6,695 nucleotides of DNA, taken from IMG/VR virus record IMGVR_UViG_2740892230_000018; one strand, 5' to 3'. Every line of letters starts with the position of its first letter. Position 1 is the first letter of the stretch. This stretch comes from a virus. Taxonomy: Duplodnaviria; Heunggongvirae; Uroviricota; Caudoviricetes. Positions 1-6,695 of the stretch are shown in pieces. Below the pieces are notes generated by a model, which saw only the letters and a program-made list of their open reading frames with translations, ran no database searches and was not told the DNA's origin. A program made the translations under genes and the position numbers.

Positions 1-190
1 CTGCTTCTCCTTGACCTTTCGGTCCGTAAGAGGCAATCTATATGTGACGAGCATATAGGGGCCTCACTTCGATTTATAGTCGGGTGGGGCTTTTATCTAT
101 CTGCCGTTGGTGTTCATGCCCGAGGCAGAATAGCCTCAAGCACCCGCTGCAATCCTACTTAACTCTGCCGTTACAGCAAACCGTTTTCGC

Positions 191-214
191 CCGATATGGG
201 AATTCCCATATCGG
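191..214. repeat. Perfect 24-bp palindrome ccgatatgggaattcccatatcgg, function unknown (possible protein-binding site or stem-loop)
   Basis: Read directly: positions 191-214 are self-complementary with an EcoRI-like gaattc core. No U-tract follows on either strand, so it is not a canonical intrinsic terminator. Confidence 0.5.
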
Positions 215-299
215 AATGAATTCAGTTCACCTGGCGAGGCTTAGCGTACAATTTTTTCCGTTTTGTGAGCTGCCCCTACATGCCGCTGGCGCGGCATCC

Positions 300-327
300 G
301 GAAAAAGAATCCACGTCCTGAAGGACG
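300..327 (-). terminator. Weak candidate intrinsic terminator downstream of the binding-protein gene
   Basis: A 5-bp GC stem (314-318 / 323-327, loop tgaa) lies 7 nt past the stop at 334-336; on the - strand it is followed after 3 nt by auucuuuuucc. The stem is short and the U-tract is not directly adjacent. Confidence 0.2.
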
Positions 328-333
328 AGGATG

Positions 334-1092
334 TCAAGTGCCTTTCCTGGTCCAGCCATATTTTTTGAATGCAGGCGCCGCTTCATCGGTTTGTAGCCAT
401 TCTGCAAATCGACGGGTTTCATCATTTGCATCCTGACGTACTGTAATGTTCATATCACGCCATATCACGTAGTCTGGCGCTATTTCCACGACATCACCAA
501 TTTCTGGATTACTGGCTGCCCAGTCAGCCCAGGTTATCCAGACATCTGCTCCAGGCTGATTCTCAAGAGCCTTACGTGCAGTTCCGCTATTGGGCGCATA
601 TAAAATAATATTTTTTCGGATTGCGGCGACAGTTTCTATATTCCCTTTACGTCCGGCAATATCTTCCCAGACGCCAGTGCCTGATGTATTACTGGTACCA
701 CCACCATCATTAACAATTACGCCAATCCCAGGTCTGGTCAGGTCGTCAATACTCCGGATATTTTTAGGATTACCTTTCTTTACCAGTAAAATACTTTTTC
801 GCAGATAAAGAGGCTGAATATCTTTTTCACTGAAGCTGTCTTTATGGTCCCGAATGATAGCCAGAGCAGATTGTTCTGATGCGCCAAACAAGATATCTGC
901 ATTTTTTTTGGCATCTTCATTCCATTTGTTCTGTGGGCCGTAATGAACGTTCACTATAATACCTGTTTTTTCGGCATAAAGTTTGGCTGCATCAAGCAAG
1001 GCTGTATGCGGGCCACCAGGACCATACAGATTGATATCAGCATAAGCAGCAGAAGACAGGAATATTAAAAAACCTGCCATTATGTTCCTCAT
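334..1092 (-). CDS. Secreted periplasmic substrate-binding protein, type 2 PBP fold, ModA (molybdate/anion)-like; orphan (no permease or ATPase nearby)
   Basis: 252-codon ORF, ATG at 1090-1092 with GGAG 6 nt upstream. N-terminus MRNIMAGFLIFLSSAAYA-DINLY looks like a Sec signal peptide with an AYA cleavage site. Architecture and the C-terminal motif ...FAEWLQTDEAAPAFKKYGW resemble ModA-type binding proteins from memory; not verified by search. Confidence 0.7.
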   Translation of the reverse strand: MRNIMAGFLIFLSSAAYADINLYGPGGPHTALLDAAKLYAEKTGIIVNVHYGPQNKWNEDAKKNADILFGASEQSALAIIRDHKDSFSEKDIQPLYLRKSILLVKKGNPKNIRSIDDLTRPGIGVIVNDGGGTSNTSGTGVWEDIAGRKGNIETVAAIRKNIILYAPNSGTARKALENQPGADVWITWADWAASNPEIGDVVEIAPDYVIWRDMNITVRQDANDETRRFAEWLQTDEAAPAFKKYGWTRKGT

Positions 1093-1256
1093 AAAAAACT
1101 CCTTTTATTGGTTATCATGAAATAAAGTTATAAACACTACAAATAATATATATTACATCCAGATAAACTTATCCGACTTTACCTCGTGCATAGCTTGTTA
1201 TTTAAAGTCAACAAAATAAGGAAAATTATACGCATATTGAAGAGTATAAACCTTAC

Positions 1257-1284
1257 ATGTTGATTACATTTTTGTAATCAACAT
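1257..1284. repeat. 12-bp inverted repeat with 4-nt spacer (atgttgattaca tttt tgtaatcaacat) in the AT-rich region upstream of the binding-protein gene; candidate operator
   Basis: Read directly. It lies about 165-190 nt upstream of the start codon at 1092, inside the AT-rich segment 1093-1340. No flanking U-tract, so a protein-binding site is more likely than a terminator. Confidence 0.4.
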
Positions 1285-1343
1285 CCTGTTTGGAATAGCC
1301 AGCCTTTAATGGATAACTATTTCTGACAATGCAATGAGTATAA

Positions 1344-1928
1344 TCAAGTCCATCTTCCACTGAGAATTAGAGGCGGCATGCTTTTTCCGGCTCTTGCCGG
1401 ATATCCGTAATTGTCCATAATCTGCAGATTTATACCTTCTGCATGACCTGTCAGCGAAAATTTGTCCGGTGTTTCTACGGGAATGACATCAAAAGTTACA
1501 CGCACTCGCGTTACCGTGTAGACCTACTTTCCTGCACTTGCAAGATCACAGTGGTGTAACCGTAACAGGAATTTATTCTCTGGACCGGCAGTAAATCCCT
1601 GAGTGGCGTGGTTCCCATATCAATTTCCCGCCAGGCAGCCTCCATTGCCAGCGTACAGGCTGGAGCCATGACCTGCCCTTTAAATCTGGCCCGACCATCC
1701 CACCGGACGTGTTCTTCTCCCCTGAACTTAGGTACAGTCATCTCCAGTGGCACAAAAGTGTCAGCGCCATAATTTTTGACCGTTATCGCGCTACGGATAT
1801 TTTGTTGACTGGTGAAAATCACCCCGCAGAATCAGGCTTATTCCCTTAACCCGGGCTTTCATCCTGACCGCCGCCTCACTACGACCAATCAGACTGCCGA
1901 TGCATTTTACCTTCATTGTTAGTATCAT
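1344..1928 (-). pseudogene. Unknown phage ORF split over three consecutive reading frames (frameshifted gene, sequencing error, or three small overlapping genes)
   Basis: Three - strand ORF pieces tile the gap between the DUF1627 gene and the AT-rich spacer: 1928->1791 (MILTMKVKCIGSLIGRSEAAVRMKARVKGISLILRGDFHQSTKYP), 1822->1511 (GTG start, 103 aa from the ORF track) and 1523->1344 (VYTVTRVRVTFDVIPVETPDKFSLTGHAEGINLQIMDNYGYPARAGKSMPPLILSGRWT, my translation). Frame switches fall within about 30 nt and 13 nt overlaps, the first at homopolymers (aaaa 1815-1818, cccc 1822-1825). No homolog recognised. Confidence 0.3.
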
Positions 1929-1951
1929 GATTTCAGGCCTGCACCATCCGC

Positions 1952-2686
1952 TCATTGCCCGGACTTCCGACAAATCCCGGCAACCATATCCCGGTGCTTG
2001 TTCAGCTCCCGCAGCGCGGCGCAGACTCGCTCCCACTTCTGGACATGATTCTTCGCCCTACGCAGTTCGCGATTTGCCATATGCAGCGATGGCAAAATCA
2101 AATCATCTTCTCGCGTTGCAGTAAACGATGGCAGCGACTGCACAATGTCCGCCACAGTTTCTGTTTTAATATCTTCCTGTGTTGCATCTTTCTGTACCGG
2201 TAACGCAACACCGGCTGGCTGAGGAAAGGCTTTACCATCGGTTTCCGCTACCGATTCAACTTTCGGCTCTGCTGGTAAATTATCACCTGGTATGCAGTAA
2301 CGAATTTTACCGTTCTGGTTTACGCGAATCAGACGACCTTTGCTGATTGCCATTGCCAGCGTTGAAGCAACTTTGCGGGATGTTGTACCGAACAGCGTAG
2401 CCAGTTCATCCGCCGTTTGTGGTCCGCGTTGTTCAATCGTCGCGGTTAAATCGCACTCTGAGATTTTCGCTTCTGTTGCCGTGGTGGTTTCTTCTGGCGC
2501 TGGCTGTTCCTGCTGAACGTTGTTATCAGCCACACGCCAGGTGTATACGCTTTTATCAACGAAGCCAGCCTTTTTCAGTTCCCACAGCTCGTTCAGTACT
2601 TCTTCACGACTGATATCAAGGCGCGCAGCCAGCTCTACCGACGTGGCTTTTCCCATCGCTTTCAGTGCGTCAAAAACAGTCTCCAT
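1952..2686 (-). CDS. Lambdoid prophage hypothetical protein, DUF1627-like, with N-terminal winged-helix-like region
   Basis: 244-codon ORF, ATG at 2684-2686 with GGAGG 6 nt upstream, 33 nt after the P-like stop. The N-terminus [43 protein letters not shown] looks like a wHTH. Family name is from memory of E. coli prophage annotations. Confidence 0.7.
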
Positions 2687-3385: not shown

Positions 3386-4312
3386 GGTTTACCCCCTTGC
3401 TGACTGGTTTAACCTGCGCCCTGACGTGATTTACGTGACGGGCGAATTTCTGCTCCCACTGAATCTGCGTAAACACTTTCCCCTCCGCTGCCCAGTAGTC
3501 CCGGAAGGCGGCAAGTTCAGCAGGTGTAAATTCTGTCTCCGGCAAAGCCATCCCCCACAACGCAGCCCGTCGTCGAAAATCCCGTGACGGATACCAGCTA
3601 TCGCTCATCGGGAATTTTCCGATGGGTTCGCTCAGGCCATACAGGAATACAGGGGGGGCTGCCTGTAACGACAAAACTTCCTGCTCACTGGNNNNNNNNN
3701 NGTCATCGGAAATTTTCCGATGGGTTCGCTCAGGCCATCCAGGAATACAAGGGGTGCTGCCTGTAACGACAAAACTTCCTGCTCACTGGTCGGAGCACTC
3801 TCGCGTGCGTTATGTGTGGGGTTTAGATCTTTGGGTTCCTTTGGGTTCCGTGATCCGTTTTTGGGTGTCTTTGATGGAAAATTTGGGTGTCTTTGGTTAT
3901 TTTCCATGCAGCTAAGAGTTCCGTTTTTGGGTCTGTTTTGTGCTGAAACATAACCATTTTCGGTACTGTTTTTATTAACAGCACCAATTTTACCCACCTT
4001 TAAAGACTCCCGTTTTTGGGTGTATTCAGGCTCGGCAACACTTTCTTCTACACCGATAAGTCGGTACACCACAATTTGCTTTGTTCTGCCTTTTCTCTCA
4101 CCGGTATCAACAATTAACCCAATCTCCATCAGGTGTCGTAAGCTGTCCTGCACAGTCTTTTTGTTTAGTTCCGTTACTTCTGCCAGTGCAGATACAGACG
4201 GGTATGCACACAAATCGGCACCGCACATATCAGCAAGCCAGGTCAATACAGACTTACTGGATGAACTGCCGGTTTTCACCTTTTTAGCCCATCGTAGTGC
4301 ATCGATACTCAT
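3174..4312 (-). CDS. Replication initiator, O-like: N-terminal helix-turn-helix domain, iteron-encoded linker, DnaT-like C-terminal region; gene model crosses an assembly join
   Basis: N-terminal part from ATG 4310-4312 (MSIDALRWAKKVKTG...), GGGG about 5 nt upstream. C-terminal part is the 3174..3674 ORF (..SDSWYPSRDFRRRAALWGMALPETEFTPAELAAFRDYWAAEGKVF..). The two parts share the peptide LQAAP(L/P)VFL(D/Y)GLSEPIGKFPM on either side of the N run 3692-3701, so one copy is redundant and the true length is uncertain. Gene order matches lambda O then P. Confidence 0.6.
3605..3789. other. Probable assembly join: N run 3692-3701 flanked by two ~87-bp near-identical copies (3605-3691 and 3703-3789)
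   Basis: Copies differ at about 5 positions (for example catacagg versus catccagg). Exactly 10 N. Both copies encode the same O-like peptide. Confidence 0.6.
3829..4027. repeat. Putative phage origin of replication: iteron array (core TTTGGGT, consensus about CCGTTTTTGGGTGTCTTTG) plus an adjacent AT-rich segment, inside the O-like gene
   Basis: Read directly: tandem ctttgggttc x2 (3829-3848), ccgtttttgggtgtctttg (3855-3873), tttgggtgtctttgg (3883-3897), ccgtttttgggtctgttttg (3921-3940), cccgtttttgggtgtattc (4009-4027), with a more AT-rich stretch at 3941-4008. On the coding strand the repeats encode the PKNG-rich linker (RPKNGT, TPKNGSRNPKEPK). Lambda likewise has ori iterons within O. Confidence 0.55.
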
Positions 4313-4956
4313 ACAAACCCCTGGCAGACATTTGTTTATCTGCAAAGTAATATTGATATTGCTGACGATACGCATGCTTGAAAGCAATAGCTTTTTCTAT
4401 AAGCTCGTCAGTCTCACGTTCCACAACAGCTGGATCCGCAAAAAGCAGCCCGGACTCCACCACATCGCCATATTCTTTGTTTAATCCGGCGATCATGTAC
4501 GTAATGCTTTTTCCATCACTGATCTCACGATACAACCTGAAATCACTAATTCGGATAGCCTCCATAATTGCCGGAATCAGCGCCGTGAATTTTTTCCGCT
4601 TATCCCTGGTGTCGATAGCTTTCCAGCGTTCGAATATCTTCACCCGGTTAACGCCCAGCGCCCGTTGATCAACCTCGCCATCATTAAACGTGACGCGTTG
4701 AACATCGATGTTCGGGCGTTCTTTCAGAGCCCAGAATGCTTCCGTGATTAATATCGTCGCNNNNNNNNNNCCCGGCGATCATGTACGTAATGCTTTTTCC
4801 GTCAGTAATTTCACAATACAATCTGAAATCGCTGATCCGGATAGCCTCCATAATTGCCGGAATCAGCGCCGNNNNNNNNNNCTGCTCCTGTGTCATTCCT
4901 GGTCGGCATACCCAGGTATCCAGAGCCTCACAAACCTGTTCAGTGGTGATTTTCAT
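4284..4956 (-). CDS. Hypothetical early-region protein in the cII/ydaT position; gene model interrupted by an assembly-join block
   Basis: The N-terminal 25 codons (ATG 4954-4956, MKITTEQVCEALDTWVCRPGMTQEQ) overlap the dicC-like stop by 17 nt, suggesting translational coupling. The C-terminal 158 codons (4284-4760) are open up to the N run with no internal ATG. Both flanks are on codon boundaries at the gap edges. Function not recognised. Confidence 0.45.
4761..4881. other. Probable assembly artefact: 100-bp variant copy (4772-4871) of 4485-4584, bounded by two 10-N runs
   Basis: About 91% identical to 4485-4584. It encodes ALIPAIMEAIRISDFRLYCEITDGKSITYMIAG against ...RLYREISDGKSITYMIAG in the main copy. 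It sits about 190 bp from its cognate, so it looks like a displaced allelic mini-contig. Confidence 0.55.
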
Positions 4957-5167
4957 TGTTCAACCGCCCCGCCCGCTTTGCCTTACGATATTCGTCATAA
5001 ACTTTGGGGTCGTACTGAAGTTCCCCGCCGGATGCCTCTTGCAGGCGCATCGCGCGACCTTCAGGAACCAGTTCTCCCCATGCAGCAACGCTTGCCAGCC
5101 TAACTCCTGCGGCATTGGCAAGCTTTGTTTTGCTGCCAAAAAACGCTATAGCATCAATTTTCAACAT
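4940..5167 (-). CDS. dicC: Cro-like small regulator, DicC-like
   Basis: 75-codon ORF divergent from the dicA-like gene, ATG at 5165-5167 with AAGGAG 6 nt upstream. Size and position match DicC of the Qin prophage; the sequence MLKIDAIAFFGSKTKLANAAGVRLASVAAW looks like a small HTH. Confidence 0.7.
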   Translation of the reverse strand: MLKIDAIAFFGSKTKLANAAGVRLASVAAWGELVPEGRAMRLQEASGGELQYDPKVYDEYRKAKRAGRLNNENHH

Positions 5168-5243
5168 ATCGAACTCCTTAGATTTTCCTAAGGAAACTAG
5201 ATCGTAGAGAAACCTAAGTCAAGAAAAATTAGAATTACCTAAT
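5168..5243. promoter_or_regulatory. Divergent dicC/dicA promoter-operator region with repeated CCTAAG/CTTAGG half-sites
   Basis: The 76-bp intergenic region holds an inverted repeat tccttag-attttc-ctaagga (5175-5194) and further cctaag/cctaa copies at 5213-5218 and 5238-5242. Operator role is inferred from position between the two regulator genes. Confidence 0.5.
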
Positions 5244-5651
5244 ATGAAAAACGAAACCTTCGGTGCTCGCCTCTTATACAGGCGTAAAAAATTAAAACTG
5301 TCTCAGGCCGCATTAGGTAAGCTGGTCAAAGTGGCTCACGTAACAATTTCTCAATGGGAAAGAGATGAAACACAGCCAGCGGGGAAGAGATTATTCGCAC
5401 TGAGCCAGGCGCTTCAGTGCTCGCCGACTTGGCTTCTTTTTGGAGATGAAGATAAGCAACCAGGCGAACCGATCCCAGATAATCAGCCAGTTAATCTGAC
5501 AGAAGATCAAAAAGAGTTGCTTCAACTGTTCGACGCACTGCCTGAGTCAGAGCAAAAGGCTCTGTTGTCAGAGATGCGTGCTCGAGTTGAGAATTTCAAC
5601 AAACTTTTTGAAGAACTACTCAAAGCTCGCAAAAGAAGCGCAAATAAATAA
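5244..5651 (+). CDS. dicA: HTH-XRE repressor, DicA-like (lacks a LexA/S24 peptidase domain)
   Basis: 135-codon ORF. Strong recalled similarity to E. coli DicA: RLLYRRKKLKLSQAALGKL..ISQWERDETQP.GKRLFALSQALQCSPTWLLFGDEDKQP...LPESEQ...EMRARVENFNKLFEELLKARKR. Same length as DicA. Confidence 0.85.
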   Translation: MKNETFGARLLYRRKKLKLSQAALGKLVKVAHVTISQWERDETQPAGKRLFALSQALQCSPTWLLFGDEDKQPGEPIPDNQPVNLTEDQKELLQLFDALPESEQKALLSEMRARVENFNKLFEELLKARKRSANK

Positions 5652-5683
5652 CCCCCCTTTTTTTCGCAACTCTCTGTAATAAA

Positions 5684-5714
5684 AAGCACAAACTTTCAAA
5701 TACTTGTGTTTTTT
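5684..5714 (+). terminator. Candidate intrinsic terminator downstream of dicA
   Basis: Stem agcacaa / ttgtgtt (5684-5690 with 5704-5710, includes a G-U pair), 13-nt loop, then a T run through 5714. The loop is long, so confidence is low. A variant copy exists past the N run at 5803-5812. Confidence 0.3.
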
Positions 5715-5908
5715 ACATCAAGAAGCTTAGGTTTTTCTACACAAAAAGCTTGACCATAACTCTTAGGCTATTCTAAATTCTACTCATCAAGACACCGCAC
5801 GGNNNNNNNNNNTCCCTTTTTTTCGCCACTCTCTGTAATAAAAAGCATAAACTTTCAAATGCTTGTGTTTTTTACATCAAAAAACTTAGGTTTTTCTACA
5901 CAAAAAGC

Positions 5909-5939
5909 TTGACCACAATTCTTAGGTTATTCTAAATTC
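5909..5939 (+). promoter_or_regulatory. Candidate sigma70 promoter for the ydfABC (dicB-operon) transcript, with flanking CTTAGG operator-like half-sites
   Basis: -35 TTGACC (5909-5914), 18-bp spacer, -10 TAAATT (5933-5938). CTTAGG occurs at 5885-5890 and 5921-5926, the same motif as in the dicA/dicC intergenic region. A variant copy lies at 5750-5779. Confidence 0.35.
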
Positions 5940-6014
5940 TACTCATCAAGACACCGCACGGTGTTCTCAGCAAACAGTTCCGCTACCCTGGCGTTAAGGG
6001 GAAATGAGGTCAGC

Positions 6015-6300: not shown

Positions 6301-6540
6301 TAAGCGAAACAGCACCGCGAGGAATCAGNNNNNNNNNNTGGTCTTGCCGAAGGCGAAGAAACTCTCAGCTTCAACGAATTTAAACAGGCGCTTTCCAGTT
6401 CGGCAAAATCTAACGGCTGATAAGCGAAACAGCACCGCGAGGAATCAGNNNNNNNNNNTCAGCTTCAGTGAGTTTAAACAGGCGCTTTCCAGCTCGGCAA
6501 AATCTAACGGCTGATAAGCGAAGCAGCACCGCGAGGAATC
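6221..6540. other. Probable assembly joins: three variant copies of the ydfB 3' end and ydfC ribosome-binding region, separated by N runs 6329-6338 and 6449-6458
   Basis: 6221-6328, 6339-6448 and 6459-6540 are collinear variants with a few substitutions (gctcacagc / actctcagc, caggtg / caggcg, taatggc / taacggc). The first two both end at ggaatcag. Confidence 0.6.
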
Positions 6541-6543
6541 AGT

Positions 6544-6695
6544 ATGCAGAAACGAGAACCCGTCATCATCGCGCCAGACTATACCGATGATGAACTTTAT
6601 GAGTGGATGCGCCAGAAAATTAATGCAGTGCAGGATCTGAAATGGGCCAATGAAGCCAGGACTAAGCAGGCTGAAAATCTGTCCGCTCTGGAGCA
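6544..6695 (+). CDS. ydfC: YdfC-like protein, 5' partial (runs off the window end)
   Basis: ATG at 6544-6546 with GAGG about 8 nt upstream; MQKREPVIIAPDYTDDELYEWMRQKINAVQDLKWANEARTKQAENLSALE... Synteny dicA-ydfA-ydfB-ydfC as in Qin. Confidence 0.65.
   Translation, partial: MQKREPVIIAPDYTDDELYEWMRQKINAVQDLKWANEARTKQAENLSALE

Follow-up and report, generated by a model that had tools for sequence, protein, structure and literature searches.

A stand-alone periplasmic binding-protein gene in an ompW-integrating lambdoid prophage corresponds to the virulence gene paa/adfO

Introduction

What is the gene of an exported substrate-binding protein doing next to the early genes of a phage, with no transporter genes to accompany it? 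The question is raised by positions 334-1340 of a 6,695-nucleotide stretch of Caudoviricetes DNA (IMG/VR record IMGVR_UViG_2740892230_000018; hereafter, the window). A sequence-only reading of the window described the product as an orphan, ModA-like periplasmic binding protein and as possible prophage cargo, and allowed that the gene might equally belong to the host chromosome beside the prophage. Our analysis indicates, with a probability of about 0.9, that the gene at 334-1092 on the minus strand is paa (adfO, Z2053), an already described accessory virulence gene that the ompW-integrating lambdoid prophage (OI-57 / CP-933O / PPompW) of EHEC and other STEC carries as a moron. paa/adfO is a routine marker for virulence typing of STEC, EPEC, and ETEC, and OI-57 has been linked to the more pathogenic seropathotypes. 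According to two published studies, OI-57 carries adfO (z2053) along with ckf (z2054), and an adfO mutant shows lower adherence to HeLa cells and lower protein secretion (PMC8565820; PMC9144400).

Results

Three features define the gene and its position with respect to the phage backbone.

334..1092, minus strand: paa/adfO coding sequence, an open reading frame with an ATG start encoding 252 amino acids, labeled 'AcfC family adhesin Paa' in RefSeq
1099..1104, minus strand: consensus Shine-Dalgarno sequence AAGGAG, six bases ahead of the start codon at 1092
1..145, minus strand: antisense RNA sok, part of the hokD (ckf) toxin module (86.3 bits for Rfam RF01794, where the gathering score is 59)

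The 252-amino-acid product is Paa/AdfO, an already published E. coli virulence factor encoded in OI-57 of O157:H7. The protein is 100% identical to the RefSeq 'AcfC family adhesin Paa' cluster, which counts 616 member sequences, and it matches at 100% in 9 of 11 PPompW or Stx2a phage records and at 99.6% in the other two, where it is labeled 'Paa/adherence factor AdfO'. The location of the Shine-Dalgarno sequence favors the 252-amino-acid start over the 248-amino-acid start given in the PPompW phage records. At the DNA level, identity to the RefSeq paa loci of complete STEC genomes is 99.8-99.9%, and positions 1-2000 of the window are found at a coverage of at least 80% in 573 of 5426 complete E. 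coli genomes. The protein had previously been treated as an unknown orphan, which its perfect match to RefSeq Paa (AdfO/Z2053) contradicts; the orphan observation itself was correct, but is ordinary because the gene is the previously described paa/adfO. The window as a whole is draft-like, with N10 joins elsewhere, and the paa region is intact.

In complete genomes, the gene order is dicA/dicC, ydaT, O, P, DUF1627, a papH-like pilin pseudogene, paa, sok/hokD, rem, ydfU, rusA, and Q, and paa has the replication module (O, P, DUF1627) on one side and the block sok/hokD-rem-ydfU-rusA-Q on the other. Taken further out, one side holds hokD, rem, ydfU, rusA, Q, and the lysis and terminase genes, and the other DUF1627, P, O, ydaT, dicC, dicA, exo, xis, and int. 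The window is colinear with PPompW_EH2246. hokD is annotated just past window position 1, with sok directly downstream of paa, and sok at 1..145, as a landmark of the phage backbone, makes paa internal to the prophage. In the Qin prophage of K-12, the corresponding slot, directly upstream of hokD, is taken by relBE (relBE/flxA/ydfV). Base composition also sets the gene apart, as GC content is 0.41 in paa and 0.51-0.59 in the phage genes. Lying between bona fide phage genes, missing at this slot from a related phage (K-12 Qin), and distinct in base composition, paa is a moron, and the proposal that it is prophage cargo is borne out by the phage genes found on both sides of it in complete genomes and in the deposited PPompW phage genomes.

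The boundaries of the cargo became apparent from comparison with plasmid copies of the gene.

266..1298, minus strand: paa cassette of ~1 kb, common to the prophage and to IncF plasmids of ETEC/STEC at 86-89% nucleotide identity
280..297, no strand assigned: GC-rich hairpin ATGCCGC-TGGC-GCGGCAT at the downstream cassette edge, kept in every cassette copy aligned there
314..327, minus strand: terminator-like hairpin CGTCCTTCAGGACG, 7 nt past the paa stop codon and with a T-rich tail after it, partly deleted in some plasmid copies
1093..1256, minus strand: upstream region of paa, AT-rich by composition (~29% GC) and conserved with the plasmid copies
1257..1284, no strand assigned: inverted repeat with perfect 12-bp arms around a 4-nt loop, located 8-14 bp inward from the upstream cassette edge
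1292..1822, minus strand: papH/pixH-like minor pilin pseudogene, frameshifted and truncated, joined directly to the paa cassette in the same cargo block

As judged from these alignments, paa appears to move as a unit of ~1 kb that comprises the palindrome, the AT-rich leader, the gene, and the hairpins, and that is found on IncF plasmids too. The pilin pseudogene, labeled in RefSeq as 'fimbrial protein; frameshifted; internal stop', has 68% identity to an intact 195-amino-acid pilin whose gene, in pap/pix-type operons, is located between those of the major subunit and the usher, and the 3' end of the pseudogene is lost at the junction with the paa cassette. What had been taken for an AT-rich spacer between paa and the phage early genes is indeed AT-rich (GC content of 0.29 for 1051-1350, compared with 0.48-0.59 for the phage genes), but it is not spacer alone, as the pseudogene intervenes at ~1292-1822. 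On one of the plasmids (L003), a second copy of the GC-rich hairpin is seen elsewhere.

The inverted repeat reported by the sequence-only reading at 1257-1284 is present, with arms ATGTTGATTACA (1257-1268) and TGTAATCAACAT (1273-1284) that are 100% complementary. None of 400 Markov simulations of the entire window produced a perfect arm of at least 12 bp, and 4 of 5000 did so when the AT-rich region alone was simulated; as RNA, the repeat is predicted to form a hairpin of -15.1 kcal/mol (z = -4.4). All occurrences were at paa loci; 576 genomes carry the repeat, the median being one copy per genome and the maximum two, and this confinement led us to reject the palindrome as a dispersed repeat or as the site of a common regulator. 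The terminator scan did not call it as an intrinsic terminator, there being no U-tract, and to our knowledge it has no convincing match among the operator consensus sequences of CRP, TyrR, EvgA, and IHF. The palindrome was present in 3 of the 12 loci compared. Among plasmid copies, the core ATTACA-TTTT-TGTAAT is invariant and the 12-bp form is not conserved in most, and the idea of an operator is weakened because the outer arm is what most of these copies have failed to keep. The chromosomal homologs of E. albertii, Raoultella, Edwardsiella, and Enterobacter are uninformative on the palindrome, because their nucleotide homology is confined to the coding region.

Instead of being a regulator site, the repeat could be a relic or structural hotspot of the recombination by which the paa cassette was fused to the truncated papH-like gene, or a weak insulator hairpin against read-through from the early operon of the phage, an explanation to which we would give even odds. 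The stretches homologous to the plasmid cassettes and to the intact papH-like gene each come to an end within ~8-14 bp of the repeat, and only the 6-bp core and the loop are invariant, the outer right arm being variable in four plasmid lineages. The stability of the RNA hairpin, and the fact that the phage early genes are transcribed toward the repeat on the same strand, also agree with this explanation. The missing U-tract after the hairpin, however, means that it is not a canonical intrinsic terminator, and the perfect form is 100% conserved in the 576 genomes, even though recent shared ancestry may account for such conservation.

On the paa strand, between the ATG and the repeat, our scan found no consensus sigma-70 promoter (no site with at least 9 of 12). 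A TATAAT at 1230-1225 on the minus strand, unchanged in 8 of 8 aligned cassette copies, is a candidate promoter only, without a recognizable -35. The description of the locus as a horizontally acquired moron with its own regulated promoter hence holds for the look of a moron, given the low GC content, the AT-rich upstream region, and the terminator-like hairpin, but not for the promoter, given the lack of a sigma-70 consensus and the loss of the 12-bp form from most plasmid copies. In a lysogen, paa might be transcribed from a weak or activator-dependent promoter of its own in the AT-rich region, for which the invariant TATAAT would be the candidate, and the palindrome would then lie at about -50.

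Export of the protein is predicted from its first codons.

1039..1092, minus strand: Sec signal peptide, codons 1-18 (MRNIMAGFLIFLSSAAYA), with cleavage predicted before D19 on inspection of the sequence

The n, h, and c regions read MRN, IMAGFLIFLSSAA, and AYA|D, respectively, and because no cysteine is present the signal peptide is of the signal peptidase I type and not that of a lipoprotein. The predicted mature N-terminus, D19, is also the first residue of the crystallized PEB3 constructs, which align from query residue 19, and in the AF2 model of Paa (pLDDT 92, pTM 0.85) residues 1-18 are disordered, with order from residue 20. Residues 20-247 match PF13531 (SBP_bac_11) with 118 bits against a cut-off of 25, and PEB3 (E=1.2e-81) and AcfC (E=3.5e-81) align over residues 11-248 with ~55% identity to each. 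In Foldseek searches, the model superimposes on AcfC (4jb7) with a TM score of 0.90 and an rmsd of 1.2 A, and on PEB3 with TM scores of 0.87-0.88. By full-length homology and a class II two-lobe fold, the family is AcfC/PEB3/Paa, a subset of Pfam PF13531 SBP_bac_11, and Paa is predicted to be a Sec-exported, non-lipidated class II periplasmic binding protein of this family. The initial description of a stand-alone substrate-binding protein with a signal peptide, and the type 2 binding-protein fold that profile searches and structure prediction could reveal, were both confirmed by the AYA|D site, the PF13531 match, the AF2 model, and the Foldseek results.

The label 'ModA-like' applies to the fold, but not to the family. 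ModA and the sulfate-binding proteins are the next-nearest structures, at a TM score of ~0.70 and 12-19% identity, and curated profiles yielded 17-23 bits against cut-offs of 62-470: 18.3 against 62.5 and 17.7 against 470 for ModA (TIGR01256 / NF002920), and 21.5 against 155.5, 22.6 against 288, and 19.0 against 308 for Sbp/CysP (TIGR00971, NF008022, NF008106). Matches to sulfate/thiosulfate binding proteins were weak and local, limited to residues 93-146 around the anion loop. Membership of Paa in the ModA or sulfate-binding families was rejected, as these cut-offs are widely missed.

As for the orphan status of the gene, a profile search found no ABC permease or ATPase among the other ORFs scanned in the window, in agreement with the sequence-only reading, and the annotation of a complete genome lists none for 14 kb in either direction, modB and modC being likewise absent. 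No permease or ATPase lies beside paa in the phage and plasmid loci examined, and no such partner immediately adjoins the gene in 9 of 9 neighborhoods of distant homologs from nine other taxa. Among these stand-alone sites are a P2-like prophage of Aeromonas, the V. cholerae island VPI-1, and a position beside cdtABC in Campylobacter, so that the suggestion to look for homologs inside prophages or next to permease genes returned one of the former. The Edwardsiella and Enterobacter chromosomal homologs lie 0.7-1.0 kb from complete ABC operons; we rejected these operons as partners, as they have binding proteins of their own, are at that distance, and are not conserved in arrangement.

Paa could nonetheless be a true transport binding protein, for molybdate, tungstate, sulfate, or a phosphorylated C3 acid, that serves an ABC transporter encoded by the host, in which case the prophage would provide its host with a nutrient-uptake upgrade and not with an adhesin. 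The class II fold, with ModA and Sbp as next-nearest structures, and the local matches around the anion loop are compatible with transport, as is the case of PEB3, which Min et al. reportedly proposed in 2009 to be a 3-phosphoglycerate transport protein, and which PDB titles list with L-phospholactate. We consider this explanation improbable, however, as the ModA and Sbp scores are far under their cut-offs, no permease or ATPase immediately adjoins the gene at the paa loci or in the nine diverse homolog neighborhoods, and a partner transporter of any family member is unreported in PMC5976639 and PMC8565820.

Discussion

Our results place paa, as a moron, within the ompW-integrating lambdoid prophage. 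That it should be host chromosome flanking the prophage, put forward earlier as an equal possibility and favored by atypical GC content alone, is refuted to near certainty by the prophage maps, with phage genes on both sides, the ompW attachment site ~12 kb from paa, and the gene itself within deposited phage genomes.

A broader view, which we hold to be doubtful, is that paa is a discrete and self-contained mobile cassette of ~1 kb that has traveled among a pap/pix-type fimbrial operon, IncF plasmids, and the ompW-integrating lambdoid prophage, that the 12-bp palindrome at its edge is functional, and that AcfC-family orphans are recurring cargo of unrelated temperate phages. The palindrome could, in such a case, be an activator operator located ~50 bp upstream of a promoter devoid of a -35, or else a site of cassette transfer. 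The P2-like prophage of Aeromonas shows the AcfC/PEB3/Paa family to be recurrent phage cargo, and if such genes are regular cargo of unrelated phages (lambdoid in E. coli, P2-like in Aeromonas), a transporter-independent, host-sensing role might have been captured repeatedly. How the gene moved, and how it might be regulated, can be approached through the boundaries of the cassette, the papH-like remnant, and the palindrome.

With regard to function, the anion-binding loop S134-N-T136-S137-G-T-G does not vary within the family: S134, T136, S137, G138, T139, and G140 are invariant in 38 homologs, down to 51% identity. T136 and S137 of Paa align with T138 and S139 of PEB3, loop residues that, in the 2009 work of Min et al., are said to function in ligand binding. 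An SG(S/T)ARK segment is also conserved between the two proteins, and the specificity of Paa may differ from that of PEB3 because K135 of PEB3 is T133 in Paa. Once exported to the periplasm, Paa would be expected to bind a small anionic ligand there, by analogy with PEB3, which binds phosphorylated C3 acids, and AcfC, which binds sulfated glycans and was crystallized with D-aspartate. Paa might then promote adherence and colonization in a direct manner, as a lectin-like protein exposed on the cell surface, or by an indirect route involving sensing, chemotaxis, or altered secretion. AcfC is periplasmic by experiment, binds sulfated glycans, and mediates chemotaxis toward mucin, and was not an adhesin in cell assays (PMC5976639), so that the 'adhesin' label of the AcfC/PEB3/Paa family is contested. 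For a protein of this fold, the indirect route seems more plausible to us than the lectin-like one, and it matches the published findings on AcfC and on the adfO mutant.

Compared to known systems, Paa has the class II fold and the anion-binding loop in common with ModA, Sbp, and CysP of ABC importers, whose genes, unlike paa, share operons with permease and ATPase genes. PEB3 of Campylobacter jejuni (PDB 2HXW, 3FJ7, 3FJG, 3FIR) is much closer, with ~52-55% identity over the mature protein, the S-N-T-S-G-T-G loop and the SG(S/T)ARK segment conserved, and a stand-alone gene in both cases; PEB3, however, is chromosomal and N-glycosylated at a D-F-N-V-S sequon, whereas Paa is phage-borne and lacks the sequon (the aligned residues are DSFSEK). 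AcfC of Vibrio cholerae (VC0841, PDB 4JB7) is a periplasmic protein encoded without a transporter partner, as is Paa, on the horizontally acquired VPI-1; its context is that of a pathogenicity island and of the ToxT regulon, and its reported role is in chemotaxis toward mucin, not in adhesion (PMC5976639).

Among the lambdoid morons of the nin or replication-to-Q region, relBE beside hokD in K-12 Qin occupies the same slot of a prophage with DicA/DicC immunity, and atypical GC content and a terminator-like hairpin are likewise found at paa, but here the cargo is a pilin pseudogene with an exported binding protein and not a toxin-antitoxin pair. With Paa (porcine attaching-and-effacing-associated protein)/AdfO of OI-57 (CP-933O) in O157:H7, finally, there is no difference of substance, as the protein is identical, ckf/hokD adjoins it, and the prophage is integrated at ompW.

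Identity of the gene and its product

The observation made in this region is real, because the open reading frame, the signal peptide, the PF13531 domain, the AT-rich spacer and the inverted repeat were all found, and, in line with the sequence-only reading, no ABC permease or ATPase was seen among the window ORFs scanned. The interpretation of the gene as prophage cargo is also right. The gene is laid out as follows:

334-1092, minus strand: paa ORF, 252 aa
1099-1104, minus strand: consensus AAGGAG, 6 bases 5' of the paa ATG

The N-terminus of Paa, MRNIMAGFLIFLSSAAYA followed by D, has n, h and c regions and an AXA site of the signal peptidase I type, and inspection of this sequence revealed no lipobox cysteine. 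These features, together with the alignment of D19 with the first residue of the crystallised PEB3 constructs and the confinement of disorder in the AlphaFold model to residues 1-18, bear out the signal peptide proposed earlier. Residues 20-247 correspond to PF13531 (SBP_bac_11; Pfam, 118 bits). By megablast, the full 2 kb of window 1-2000 is 99.8-99.9% identical in complete STEC genomes, where the ORF is annotated as "paa: AcfC family adhesin Paa", and at least 80% of this segment is present in 573 of 5426 complete E. coli genomes. Paa is, furthermore, 100% identical to a 616-sequence cluster named AcfC family adhesin Paa. Because the gene is the well-known virulence marker paa/adfO, the finding is already known: according to reviews (PMC8565820, PMC9144400), OI-57 (prophage CP-933O, inserted in ompW) carries the virulence genes adfO (z2053) and adjoining ckf (z2054, hok-family toxin), and an adfO mutant shows poor HeLa adherence and lower protein secretion.

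Family and fold

Among PDB sequences, the best matches of Paa were PEB3 of C. jejuni (E=1.2e-81) and AcfC of V. cholerae (E=3.5e-81), both spanning the mature protein, with sulfate-binding proteins at E values of only 1e-4 to 1e-3. The AlphaFold2 model (pLDDT 92, 38 homologues) gave a TM of 0.90 and an rmsd of 1.2 A against AcfC (4jb7) and a TM of 0.87-0.88 against PEB3; a second tier was formed by ModA of several species (TM about 0.70, 12-19% identity), and below it came Sbp and ferric-binding proteins. Paa is a member of the AcfC/PEB3/Paa family. Membership in ModA and Sbp, judged by curated NCBIfam cut-offs, was rejected, as the scores fell far below them:

ModA TIGR01256: 18.3 bits, cut-off 62.5
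ModA NF002920: 17.7 bits, cut-off 470
Sulfate-binding TIGR00971: 21.5 bits, cut-off 155.5
Sulfate-binding NF008022: 22.6 bits, cut-off 288

The earlier label "ModA-like" is hence correct for the fold but not for the family. Residues S134, T136, S137, G138, T139 and G140 are invariant in a 38-sequence alignment reaching down to 51% identity; T136/S137 correspond to T138/S139 of PEB3. Mutation of the latter two was reportedly found by Min and colleagues in 2009 to abolish 3-phosphoglycerate and PEP binding, and through this correspondence we take the invariant loop of Paa to be anion-binding. The two proteins also differ: Paa has T133 at the position of PEB3 K135 and lacks the glycosylation sequon of PEB3.

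Genomic neighbourhoods and possible function

We surveyed the neighbourhoods of eight homologue proteins with 53-87% identity, along with several plasmid copies. The E. albertii homologue (7001-7762 of the fetched locus; 87% amino acid identity) is chromosomal and stands alone with an aga/kba-type PTS cluster on either side, and has only the coding region in common with the E. coli cassette, without palindrome and AT-rich leader. The Raoultella and Francisella homologues are likewise alone, that of V. cholerae follows tcpJ/toxT in a VPI-1-type island, and that of Campylobacter adjoins cdtABC. Complete ABC operons with their own binding protein lie 0.7 kb away in Enterobacter and, in Edwardsiella, just past a traT-like gene situated 0.96 kb upstream. 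The IncF plasmid copies of ETEC and STEC are single genes near repA, IS elements and the STa enterotoxin gene. The Aeromonas homologue (6001-6774 of a metagenome contig; 54-56% identity) resides in a P2-like prophage, with the gpA replication gene on one side and ogr/portal on the other, where P2 phages classically carry cargo. Temperate phages of at least two unrelated types thus have a member of this family as cargo. In none of the eight homologue neighbourhoods or the IncF plasmid copies was a dedicated permease or ATPase directly adjacent, and the homologues surveyed are thus not confined to complete ABC operons on the chromosome and away from prophages, a pattern that the sequence-only reading had named as evidence against cargo.

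AcfC, a periplasmic protein, has heparin, chondroitin sulfate and mucin among its ligands; chemotaxis towards mucin requires it, adhesion does not (PMC5976639). Crystal ligands, according to PDB titles, are D-aspartate for AcfC and L-phospholactate for PEB3. Paa would be exported to the periplasm, as its export signal suggests, where it would bind an anion, either a small ligand or a glycan, and would enhance colonisation. Because of fold and location, a route through sensing, chemotaxis or secretion effects is more plausible than a role as a surface adhesin of the classical kind. As the main alternative, Paa could be a true transport binding protein serving a distal ABC system; this is improbable, and no support for it was found.

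Assembly of the window

Six runs of exactly 10 N (3692-3701, 4761-4770, 4872-4881, 5803-5812, 6329-6338 and 6449-6458) join pieces that in part duplicate each other, which gives the window the look of a scaffold of draft contigs or of allelic variants that were collapsed; ORFs across these joins, with X-containing translations, are therefore artefacts. Among the duplications, about 86 bp in reference coordinates are common to 3703-4760 and the piece before it, 4771-4871 represents another allele of part of 3703-4760, and 5814-6003 overlaps 4882-5802.

The AT-rich spacer and the cassette

1051-1350: AT-rich spacer, 29% GC (48-59% in phage genes)
1257-1268 and 1273-1284: inverted repeat, ATGTTGATTACA / TGTAATCAACAT, 4-nt loop
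1230-1225, minus strand: TATAAT
280-297: GC hairpin ATGCCGC-TGGC-GCGGCAT
1292-1822, minus strand: papH/pixH-like minor pilin pseudogene, frameshifted and 3'-truncated, directly upstream of the paa cassette in the prophage

The 12-bp inverted repeat lies exactly where it had been placed, at 1257-1284. A perfect arm of at least 12 arose in 0 of 400 first-order Markov simulations of the window and in 4 of 5000 of the AT-rich region alone. Its core, ATTACA-TTTT-TGTAAT, is unchanged in all eight aligned cassette copies; the outer right arm varies in four plasmid lineages, so that a long perfect palindrome persists only in the prophage (12 bp) and in a single plasmid lineage (10 bp). In E. coli it was found in 576 genomes (median one copy per genome, maximum two), always at paa and nowhere else. 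As RNA it has a predicted fold of -15.1 kcal/mol (z = -4.4); the terminator scan does not call it, and a U-tract is absent. The TATAAT is unchanged in all aligned cassette copies and has neither a -35 nor an extended -10; if it is a -10 element, the palindrome centre would fall near -50. The palindrome may be an operator, a junction relic or a weak insulator, with the non-regulatory readings jointly at about even odds. A second perfect palindrome, CCGATATGGGAATTCCCATATCGG (191-214, 24 bp, no loop), lies between the sok RNA and the cassette edge at about 266, and its chance probability is as low as that of the 1257-1284 repeat.

Prophage and plasmids share only window ~266 to ~1286-1298, at 86-89% identity. 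The downstream cassette edge lies just past the GC hairpin, which is kept in all copies whose alignment covers this end. Plasmid pSTEC388_3 has a second, inverted copy of the hairpin near yacAB (6547-6570 of the fetched locus, 23/24 nt), so that it may belong to a small REP-like repeat. Upstream, the cassette gives way to at least five different flanking sequences within about 8-14 bp past the palindrome. While the spacer is real, it is not all that separates paa from the phage genes, as the frameshifted pilin pseudogene also lies in between. This pseudogene has lost its last ~10 codons at the junction with the cassette, and the cargo block is therefore a papH-like remnant followed by palindrome, leader, paa and hairpins. 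Its intact relatives (195 aa, 68% protein identity) sit between major subunit and usher in pap/pix-type operons, which suggests that, before its arrival in the phage, paa had been inserted into a fimbrial operon or had recombined with one.

Prophage context and comparison with Qin

In O157:H7 PV15-279 and phage PPompW_EH2246, the genes run in the order int, xis, exo, dicB, ydfC, dicA / dicC, ydaT-like, O, P and DUF1627, followed by the fimbrial pseudogene, paa, hokD, rem, ydfU-like, rusA, Q, tRNAs, lysis and terminase, with split ompW at the integrase end. The window is colinear with PPompW_EH2246 from 12092 to 5875, and directly downstream of paa are found:

1-145, minus strand: sok antisense RNA of the hokD/ckf type I toxin module (Rfam RF01794, 86 bits)
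Just beyond window position 1: hokD

Taken together, these data place paa inside the prophage, between phage genes, in agreement with its reading as cargo, and consequently exclude that it is host chromosome beside the prophage. In PV15-279, two IS1203 copies (3621-4834 and 17511-18723 of the fetched locus) interrupt the lysozyme gene and the replication O-like gene; that prophage copy is therefore defective, with paa intact.

The picture is mostly that of a moron, with phage genes on both sides, a GC content of 0.41 in paa and 0.29 upstream against 48-59% in phage genes, and a terminator-like hairpin 7 nt past the paa stop codon; of the promoter of its own that had been attributed to it, the TATAAT is a candidate lacking a -35. 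Qin of K-12 shares the DicA/DicC immunity region and the hokD-rem-ydfU-Q block with this prophage; there relBE is directly upstream of hokD, with ydfV and flxA beyond, in the place that paa holds here. The place upstream of hokD is, therefore, a variable cargo slot.
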